Shown here: positions 55,501-57,776 of the stretch, one piece after another
Position numbering within the stretch: the stretch's first letter is position 1
How the letters are laid out: each line of letters starts with the position of its first letter
NCBI RefSeq assembly: GCF_057098645.1
Contig: NZ_CM169472.1
DNA length: 64,000 bases
Reading direction: 5' to 3' (one strand)
Made by a program: the position numbers

Positions 55501-57776
55501 ACGGTGGAGTGAGCGATGATCAGTGCCGGAGCCTGATCGTGCATCACCACCTGCGCTTGCTTGTACAGTTCAACGCGTTTGTTATGGTCGTCGGTAGCAC
55601 GCGCCGGTTGAATCAGATCTTCAAACGGTTTGTAGCACCATTTTGAGTAGTTGGAGCCTTGTTCAGAGGCGGCGCAGCTGAACAGGGTGGCGAAGAAGTT
55701 ATCCGGGTCCCCGTTATCGCCAGTCCAGCCCATCATTACCGTCTGATGCTCGCCATCTTTCGCACGCTTGAGGTACTCACCCCATTCGTAGGTGACGATT
55801 TTGGCCTGCACGCCCACTTTCGCCCAGTCTGCCTGAATCATCTCCGCCATGCGGCGAGCGTTCGGGTTATACGGACGTTGTACCGGCATCGCCCACAGGT
55901 CGATGGAGAAACCTTTTTCCAGACCCGCTTCTTTCAGCAAGGCTTTCGCTTTTTCAGGATCGTAGGTGTAGTCCTGAACGTCGTCGTTATAGCCCCACAT
56001 GGTTGGCGGGATCAGGTTTTTCGCTGATACGCCCGCGCCCTGATAAACCGCTTTGATGATCGCGTCTTTGTTCACCGCGTAGGTCAGAGCCTGGCGAACT
56101 TTCACGTCATCGAGTGGTTTTTTCTGCACGTTATACGAGAGATAACCGACGTTCAGCCCCGGCATTTCCATCAGATTGATGGATTTATCCTGCTTCATGC
56201 GAGCGATATCTGCCGGGTTCGGGTACGGCATCACCTGGCATTCATTCTTCTGCAATTTCGCGTAACGCACGGAAGCGTCAGGAGTAATAGAGAAGACCAG
56301 CGTATCGATCTGCGGTTTGGTGCCCCAGTAGCCATCAAACGCTTTGTAGCGAATACGGGAATCTTTTTGATACTGCTGTAACTGGAACGGACCGGTACCG
56401 ATTGGGTTGAGGTCCAGTTTTTCCGGTGTACCAGCTTTCATCATCGCATCAGCATATTCTTTTGACAGAATAGAGGCGAAGTCCATTGCCAGGTCAGCGA
56501 GGAACGGCGCTTCCGGTCGAGTCAGCACAAACTGAACGGTGTTATCGTCCACCTTTTTCACTTCGCTGATCAGCTCTGGCAAGCCCATGCCTTCGAAGTA
56601 TTCGTAGCTGCCGCCAGATACTTTATGGTACGGGTTTTGCGCGTTTTTCTGACGATCAAACGAGAACACCACGTCATCGGCGTTCAGTTCGCGCGTCGGT
56701 TTGAATTCTTTATTGTCGTGCCACTTCACACCTTTACGCAGATGGAAGGTGTAGGTTTTACCGTCTTCGCTGACTTCCCACTTTTCAGCGAGGCCCGGGA
56801 TCACTTCAGTGGTGCCGATTTTAAATTCAACCAGACGGTTATAAAGCGGGACGGAAGAGGCGTCATAGGTGGTGCCGGAGGTAAACAGCTGCGGGTTAAA
56901 CCCTTCCGGAGATCCTTCTGAGCAATAAACCAGAGTTTTAGCCTGAACACTTGCTGCGACGGTCATAGCCACCAGGCTGAGACCAAGCTTCAGCATCCCT
57001 GACTTTTTCAAGGAAATACGCATTATTCTGCTCCAATTGTGATGTTTGTTGTTTTAACCCTTTGCAGTGGGTTGTCGCTGCCTGACCTTTTTTGTTTTTT
57101 GCCCGGTCGGGTCAACGTTATGAGGTGGGGATGCCGTACTAATTAACATCAGTGTAACAGTGCGGATCCTCCATAAAATGCCCCTCGTGACCTACAATCT
57201 GTCAACAGAATGTGAAAACGTCAATACAGCCAACCGGGATTTACACCAACGGTGAGAATCCACAAACAAAGATTAAAAAAACTTCAAACAGCTATTTGCA
57301 GCAGAGAAATTTGTGCTACTCCAACATGACCAGAACAATCAGCTTAATATTTAGCAACATTTGGTGATTAAGTTTTATGCATTTAGTGAAAAAAATCTGA
57401 GGAAAAGGTGGATATCTGAGCGATTAATACCATGAACGCTAAAACGCACAGCGGAAAATGCCAGCGCCAGCCATAAGTAACGCAAAAAAAGATTTAAGCA
57501 AATATAAAAAAAGACAATGGTTTCTGTCACAAATCCGTTAATGGATAGTGAGATATGGGGCGCAAATTTGGCAGGGAAATGTGTGGCGTGTAGGTCGAAT
57601 AAGGCGTTCACGCCGCATCCGACAATGGCCGGCACATTTTGCCTGATGCAACGCTGGCGCGTCTTATCAGGCTACGTCGAGTTGAACCTCCCTGCCCCCG
57701 GAGGTTCTCATCCTCATGAGCTACAAATGCAAAAAAGCCTGCTCGTTGAGCAGGCTTTTCGAATTTGGTCGGTGAT

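Follow-up and report, generated by a model that had tools for sequence, protein, structure and literature searches.

A conserved AT-rich block upstream of the dppA promoter within a composite non-coding interval of Escherichia coli

The subject of this analysis is the interval between dppA and the tRNA-Pro gene proK (57024-57765) in a 64,000-nucleotide stretch of DNA from contig NZ_CM169472.1 (NCBI RefSeq assembly GCF_057098645.1), which is referred to below as the window and from whose first letter all positions are counted. The receptor encoded by dppA is a major one for peptides, haem and chemotaxis, and the gene is a textbook target of small RNAs. The interval is, with good confidence, a composite non-coding region of three functional zones, viz., a proK side, a middle block and a dppA side. 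The promoter, the leader with its control by the small RNA (sRNA) GcvB, the repetitive extragenic palindromic (REP) elements and the RtT repeats found in the outer zones are all established already. The middle zone is an AT-rich block at 57225-57535 (no strand assigned), reaching from -37 to -347 relative to the dppA start site, which has phased A/T tracts and is free of indels across the family Enterobacteriaceae. Such a family-wide block was found nowhere in the literature searched, but it is still of a known kind, that of the complex upstream regulatory region. We propose tentatively, at slightly less than an even chance, that it is an Enterobacteriaceae-specific cis-regulatory module, a helically phased nucleoprotein platform with one or more operators for a regulator not assigned so far, which would set dppA transcription by signals not yet tied to dipeptide uptake.

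The interval is bounded downstream by the dppA coding sequence (55416-57023, minus strand, 535 amino acids; from the list of open reading frames (ORFs) and the RefSeq annotation) and upstream by proK, a tRNA-Pro(CGG) gene (57766-57842, minus strand; ARAGORN, Rfam tRNA model at 60.7 bits and RefSeq annotation). From the dppA start codon at 57023 to proK it measures exactly 742 bp, in agreement with the figure of about 740 bp given in a preliminary description of this DNA. The window comes from E. coli. Its interval shares 100% identity with that of strain O145 RM9872, and 80% or more of the interval is held by 5415 of 5426 complete E. coli genomes. RefSeq places no feature under the interval in O145 RM9872 or in K-12, and the sole label under it in any E. 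coli genome is ‘RtT sRNA’, in strains with an extra unit that is described below. The tRNA-Pro and dppA are 620-1657 bp apart in all 56 loci of related species with the tRNA in reach, so the long gap is not a quirk of one strain. The GC content is 30-44% over 57220-57580 as against about 50% in the flanks. The longest ORFs, of 86 amino acids (minus strand, with its start within the REP pair) and 124 amino acids (plus strand, antisense to the tRNA), are unconserved across related species, the three longest ORFs have no Pfam match, and an Rfam search of the interval at permissive E-values matched only the REP-pair and tRNA models. The preliminary description, which had reported REP units and AT-rich sequence without a convincing ORF, is thus borne out on each of these points. 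Its suggestion that the interval holds the dppA promoter and leader rather than a gene is likewise supported, but no more than some 200 of the 742 bp are taken up by the promoter and leader. Another 175 bp or so belong to the proK terminator, an RtT remnant and a REP pair, and about 310 bp of what had passed for plain AT-rich spacer are the conserved upstream block. For annotation, the long gap needs no new gene; known element types account for all of it.

The conservation of the block was followed in 80 loci, taken at species level from across the Enterobacteriaceae, that encode close relatives of DppA, and in a 79-sequence alignment. The region from about 57535 to 57160 is alignable by BLAST in 80-100% of the 80 loci, as against 9% for the adjoining REP segment, and the alignment is gap-free between 57493 and 57134. 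Relative to E. coli, identity averages 0.73 over 57503-57190 and rises to 0.83 in the proximal 110 bp. The conservation is patchy, with invariant islands of 10-30 bp that are separated by spacers variable in sequence but not in length. A single, unannotated copy of the block is present in 5422 of 5426 E. coli genomes. It also stays with dppA in 12 loci without proK within 3 kb, in 11 of which the closest long open frame stops 559-831 bp upstream, the remaining locus having a 157-codon frame at 289 bp. No genes are called in the first 519 bp or more upstream of dppA in Yersinia, Serratia, Pectobacterium, Pantoea, Proteus and Edwardsiella either; only 57195-57284 is alignable in these six genera, together with 57299-57318 in Yersinia and Serratia. 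The latter segment is a near-invariant dyad, TAGCA-N10-TGCTG (-130 to -111, no strand assigned), which stands out in the per-column conservation and reads TAGCA-N10-TGCTA in Yersinia. It is the most distinctive of the conserved islands and a candidate operator.

It could be argued that the block is functionless and owes its conservation to a low local mutation rate or to hitch-hiking with the highly expressed dppA, the more so as its distal two thirds are unalignable outside the Enterobacteriaceae. However, the fourfold-degenerate sites of dppA itself are only 0.58 identical, below the block in nearly every species compared. A uniformly low mutation rate also fits poorly with islands set amid variable spacers, or with a stretch of about 360 bp that is essentially indel-free in 79 species next to a REP that is lost outside Escherichia. 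We therefore regard a functionless block as extremely improbable.

Coding capacity in the block was assessed with six-frame stop-codon maps, substitution periodicity and scans for conserved starts and stops. Substitutions in the block have no 3-nt periodicity, no Pfam match is present, and frames are broken in many species. The most conserved part, 57432-57541, contains an overlapping antisense pair of mini-ORFs picked up by the start/stop scan, one of 27 amino acids on the plus strand (ATG at 57458) and one of 11 amino acids on the minus strand (ATG at 57474), whose start codons are kept while their frames are not maintained. If the interval hid an unannotated gene, it would be a small protein encoded by one of these two ORFs or an independent sRNA. 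The ATG at 57458 is indeed found in 97% of species and the 27-residue length recurs in many, but this ORF was rejected as more than 20 species have its frame shortened to 2-16 codons, and a different 16-codon product is common to some of the most diverged genera. The 11-residue ORF, although equally long in 52 of 64 species with TAG and TAA stops interchanged, was likewise rejected; its ATG is lost in Salmonella, and its conserved Arg codon is altered at positions 1 and 2 to give Pro, Ala, Thr or Ser.

The case for an independent sRNA fares similarly. RNAalifold consensus folds of two ranges of the block are essentially empty on both strands (-2.6 kcal/mol), and its single-sequence folds are no better than those of shuffled sequences (z = +0.67 and +0.89). 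The block has no Rfam match, the interval has no Rfam family beyond the REP and tRNA models, the terminator scan reported no terminator-like site, and the Term-seq supplement of Adams 2021 lists no 3' end within 57189-57765. An abundant 3' end in the dppA leader, at -95, does imply a stable RNA of about 70 nt, but this fragment uses the dppA promoter and thus represents no independent gene. By these comparisons the block is neither coding nor a structured RNA, and a hidden gene in the interval, which appears largely refuted by the comparative tests, is very improbable. The conserved small ORF or independently expressed sRNA that the preliminary description had named as grounds for giving up its reading did not come to light.

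The block lies directly upstream of the dppA promoter (TTGACG-17-CAGATT, 57196-57224, minus strand), in which the -35 hexamer TTGACG is at 57219-57224, the -10 hexamer CAGATT is at 57196-57201 and the 17-nt spacer ends in TGA. The same two hexamers occur in every one of the 79 aligned species. A generic promoter scan missed this promoter because its -10 matches at only three of six positions. The hexamer positions predict a start site near 57188, i.e. at -165 relative to the ORF, which is also where Abouhamad and Manson reportedly placed the E. coli start site in 1994. With a spacer within the 16-18 bp typical of sigma-70 promoters and a position upstream of the start site in the literature, the strong -35, extended TG and weak -10 form a sigma-70 promoter that starts a leader of about 165 nt. 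In Salmonella, Hfq-bound dppA cDNAs run from the +1 site and an in-vitro fragment begins at -163 (Sittka 2008), in agreement with a start at -165, and the 5' 166 nt of dppA mRNA were used by Tree 2014.

A promoter scan also reported a promoter-like site, GTGACA-18-TATATT (57501-57530, minus strand), at the distal edge of the block. Taken as a second dppA promoter (57530-57501), it would start transcription near 57494 and give a U-rich leader of about 470 nt that acts as RNA, e.g. by offering Hfq, CsrA or Rho a platform. The site scores 10 of 12 and sits exactly where conservation begins, all T tracts are on the sense strand with a plus-strand AT skew of up to +0.5, and about 80% of species retain the region of the upstream hexamer (TGTGAC in 62 of 79). 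What is conserved across species, however, is TTTGTGACA...CCATTG, and the -10 is not, with TATATA, TATGA or TATGG in its place in many genera. Further, a leader acting as RNA sits uneasily with a block that has no conserved RNA structure or thermodynamic signal, with the lack of any Term-seq 3' end listed between the leader site and proK (Adams 2021), and with Salmonella Hfq-bound cDNAs that start at the known +1 (Sittka 2008). A second promoter of this kind is accordingly unlikely, though a variant of the module proposal would take part of the block as an unrecognised long leader from it.

The features of the block are more suggestive of an upstream regulatory architecture that acts at the level of DNA. 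The AA/TT dinucleotides recur in it with a period of 10.5 bp, the strongest such signal among 2548 scan windows across the 64 kb (p of about 0.015 against dinucleotide-preserving shuffles), and do so in the same phase in nearly all species. The second strongest 10.5-bp signal lies at about 27950-28460, inside the coding sequence of yhjG (AsmA family), so the periodicity statistic alone is no mark of regulatory DNA. It is the constant spacing, taken together with the phasing of the A/T tracts, the conservation in islands and the weakness of the -10, that points to protein sites on bent DNA. On this favoured reading, several putative protein-binding sites would be carried on intrinsically bent DNA at a fixed distance from the promoter, and the helical phasing of these sites relative to the weak -10 promoter would matter. 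Candidates for the proteins that bind are CRP, for which genomic SELEX (systematic evolution of ligands by exponential enrichment) lists dppA as a new target at an unspecified site, and nucleoid-associated proteins. Matches to the CRP consensus (TGTGA-N6-TCACA) reach only 7 of 10 positions, the best-conserved half-site being TGTGAC at -338 to -343. A chromatin immunoprecipitation preprint on Lrp makes no mention of dpp in its main text, and papers on NsrR/NO and on EGRIN have no bearing on the upstream region. A FliA-like pair, TGAAGTTT...GCCGATTC, is present in most species and was discarded, as its spacing read from the alignment is 15 nt, not 11.

In known systems, the closest parallel is with complex sigma-70 promoters on bent DNA such as that of gltBDF (Lrp, IHF, CRP, ArgR), with which the dppA upstream region shares a weak -10, conserved AT-rich DNA that extends over several hundred bp and keeps its spacing, A/T tracts in helical phase and conserved islands of the size of protein sites. 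Unlike in such promoters, matches to CRP, Lrp, IHF and Fis are only weak here and the regulator sites are putative. The block also reaches further, to -347, than most characterised E. coli upstream regions. nuo and ompF are further examples of complex sigma-70 promoters with long upstream regions.

Several observations weigh against a DNA-level regulatory role. When normalised for A/T content, the phasing ranks only 59th of 2548, and no more than 31 of 73 species attain p ≤ 0.05 for it, the signal being lost in Salmonella. The long T tracts are all found on the sense strand of dppA, an asymmetry that suits an RNA-level role better, and with a promoter-like site exactly at the distal edge, part of the block could be transcribed. 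In scans with the consensus sequences of IHF, CRP, Lrp, FNR, TyrR, ArgR, sigma-54, NtrC, Nac, Fis, DnaA, Fur, H-NS, PurR, MetJ and Cra, all matches were weak, with 2-4 mismatches, and none was assigned. The E. coli start site at -165, from which distances are counted, is the one reportedly given by Abouhamad and Manson. Lastly, no mapping of a protein to the block was found in the literature, and we infer its regulatory role from conservation alone. Even so, about 310 bp kept at fixed spacing across a whole family suggest that the control of dppA transcription is more elaborate than GcvB-centred accounts, and the conserved islands offer precise targets for mutagenesis and protein pull-downs.

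On the dppA side, the 5' untranslated leader of about 165 nt occupies 57024-57188 (minus strand), as delimited by Sittka 2008, Tree 2014 and the reported E. coli start site. The target and translational enhancer of GcvB lie at its downstream end (57031-57064, minus strand), where four ACA motifs are followed by the Shine-Dalgarno sequence, in correspondence with the published site. The preliminary description had suggested a search of the leader for a CA-rich GcvB target, and one is present: ACAACAAACATCACA, with four ACA motifs in 15 nt, is at 57038-57052, just 5' of the GGAG Shine-Dalgarno, which is found 3 nt further downstream at 57031-57034. The leader has ACAACAAACATCACAATTGGAGCAGAATAATG at its 3' end. 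The 34-nt E. coli GcvB-dppA site (-41 to -8; Kim 2012 Table S6) is unchanged in the window, and the C/A-rich ACA stretch by the Shine-Dalgarno fits the description of Yang 2014, in which the four ACA motifs are a translational enhancer required for dppA expression. An RNAduplex scan of the R1 region of K-12 GcvB (nt 63-96) against 6396 scan windows across the 64 kb places its best duplex within the interval at 57034-57071, with -28.6 kcal/mol and rank 19 of 6396. dppA is a verified target of GcvB R1 in both E. coli and Salmonella. GcvB together with Hfq would pair with the C/A-rich enhancer, and translation of DppA would be shut off when amino acids are plentiful. Among the GcvB-repressed leaders of ATP-binding cassette transporters (dppA, oppA, gltI, argT) this one is the archetype itself, with the same 34-nt site, the ACA motifs, the adjacent Shine-Dalgarno and a strong R1 duplex, and nothing in its target site sets it apart. 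In the background of enterohaemorrhagic E. coli type, the phage-encoded anti-sRNA AgvB is reported to counteract GcvB at dppA (Tree 2014).

The 5' part of the leader folds into a hairpin at 57126-57173 (transcript nt 16-63, minus strand). The single-sequence fold of the whole leader has -44.7 kcal/mol with a z of only -1.96, and no Rfam cis-regulatory family matches it at or near its gathering score, so that by these two measures the leader does not class as a riboswitch or structured leader. Binding of the dppA leader to Hfq is tight and involves competition for the distal face (Tree 2014; Sittka 2008), and we infer that the A-rich tract AAAAAACAAAAAA (57088-57100, minus strand), which is highly conserved per column, is likely the distal-face site. 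The Term-seq supplement of Adams 2021 lists an abundant RNA 3' end that is not Rho-dependent at K-12 3707800 (minus strand), -95 from the ORF, which the main text of that paper leaves undiscussed. This position corresponds to 57118 of the window, 8 nt past the leader hairpin, and implies that a 5' leader fragment of about 70 nt accumulates. The fragment starts at the dppA promoter and has no promoter of its own.

Two other features of the leader may be mentioned. A candidate upstream ORF that would start at ATG 57174 was discarded, the T of this ATG being kept in only about half of the species. A short GC-rich hairpin, GCCTTCGGGC, is inserted at about 57115-57123 in many genera, among them Klebsiella, Enterobacter, Kosakonia and Cedecea, and is lacking in Escherichia, Salmonella and Citrobacter.

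The proK side differs between strains and species, and is made up of the intrinsic terminator of the tRNA gene, an RtT repeat of tRNA origin in truncated form and a REP pair. The terminator, GCCTGCTC-AAC-GAGCAGGC followed by TTTTTTG (57730-57759, minus strand), was recognised as an inverted repeat with a T run. It consists of a perfect 12-nt inverted repeat (57733-57744 and 57748-57759), with a GC-rich stem of 8 bp and a loop of 3 nt ahead of the T run on the minus strand, and its segment is alignable in about 70% of related loci. A generic scan with a consensus terminator left it uncalled, probably as the flanking A/T pairs extend the stem into the T run.

Next to the terminator is a truncated RtT-like element (57677-57731, minus strand) with the hairpin GAACCTCC..GGAGGTTC, which corresponds to about the first 55 positions of the RtT model. 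There is no match to RtT (RF00391) in the window at E ≤ 1, and the element falls short of the full 130 positions of the family. In K-12 the gap is 910 bp by alignment as compared to 742 bp here, the additional 168 bp being a tandem unit (positions 2949-3116 of the K-12 locus, L001) composed of a terminator, an RtT element and a duplicated tRNA 3' end. RF00391 is matched in full by this unit (101 bits, model positions 1-130). Forms with and without it occur among E. coli genomes, some of whose matching segments carry the label ‘RtT sRNA’. The element resembles the RtT repeats 3' of tyrT (RF00391) in being a tRNA-derived tandem repeat directly downstream of a tRNA gene, but differs from them in that it is attached to proK, retains only the 5' 55 nt or so of a single unit and has no Rfam match.

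The REP units reported in the preliminary description are located at 57593-57673 (no strand assigned), where two REP palindromes in inverted orientation form a REP pair, or bacterial interspersed mosaic element (BIME). This pair, evident as an inverted repeat, matches the Rfam REP-pair model naRNA4 over model positions 1-77 with 67.8 bits on the plus strand and 42.2 bits on the minus strand, against a gathering threshold of 59.5. It is like the BIME at REP325, the source of the naRNA4 model, in having two inverted REP palindromes that score above the threshold. Unlike the REP325 locus, it is one generic REP pair with no sign of a naRNA4-like function.

Upstream of proK, the promoter scan found a promoter-like TTGACG-17-TAAGAT at 57855-57883 (minus strand), presumably the proK promoter. 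The syntenic tRNA-Pro upstream of dppA (loci L027-L082, ARAGORN) has the anticodon CGG in Escherichia, Salmonella, Citrobacter and Klebsiella, and TGG in Enterobacter, Lelliottia, Buttiauxella, Cedecea and others. Beyond proK come eptB and then, at 59880-61494 and further, the adjoining genes for long polar fimbriae (lpfE, a fimbrial protein gene and lpfC). This lpf island is absent from K-12, where yhjX follows eptB. On the other side of dppA, the dppA-dppB intergenic region (55266-55415) is well conserved across genera, with 65-98% of loci alignable, and has a GC-rich hairpin within it. A Term-seq 3' end is also recorded in this region at K-12 3705889 (Adams 2021), and the hairpin and the 3' end together fit partial termination after dppA.

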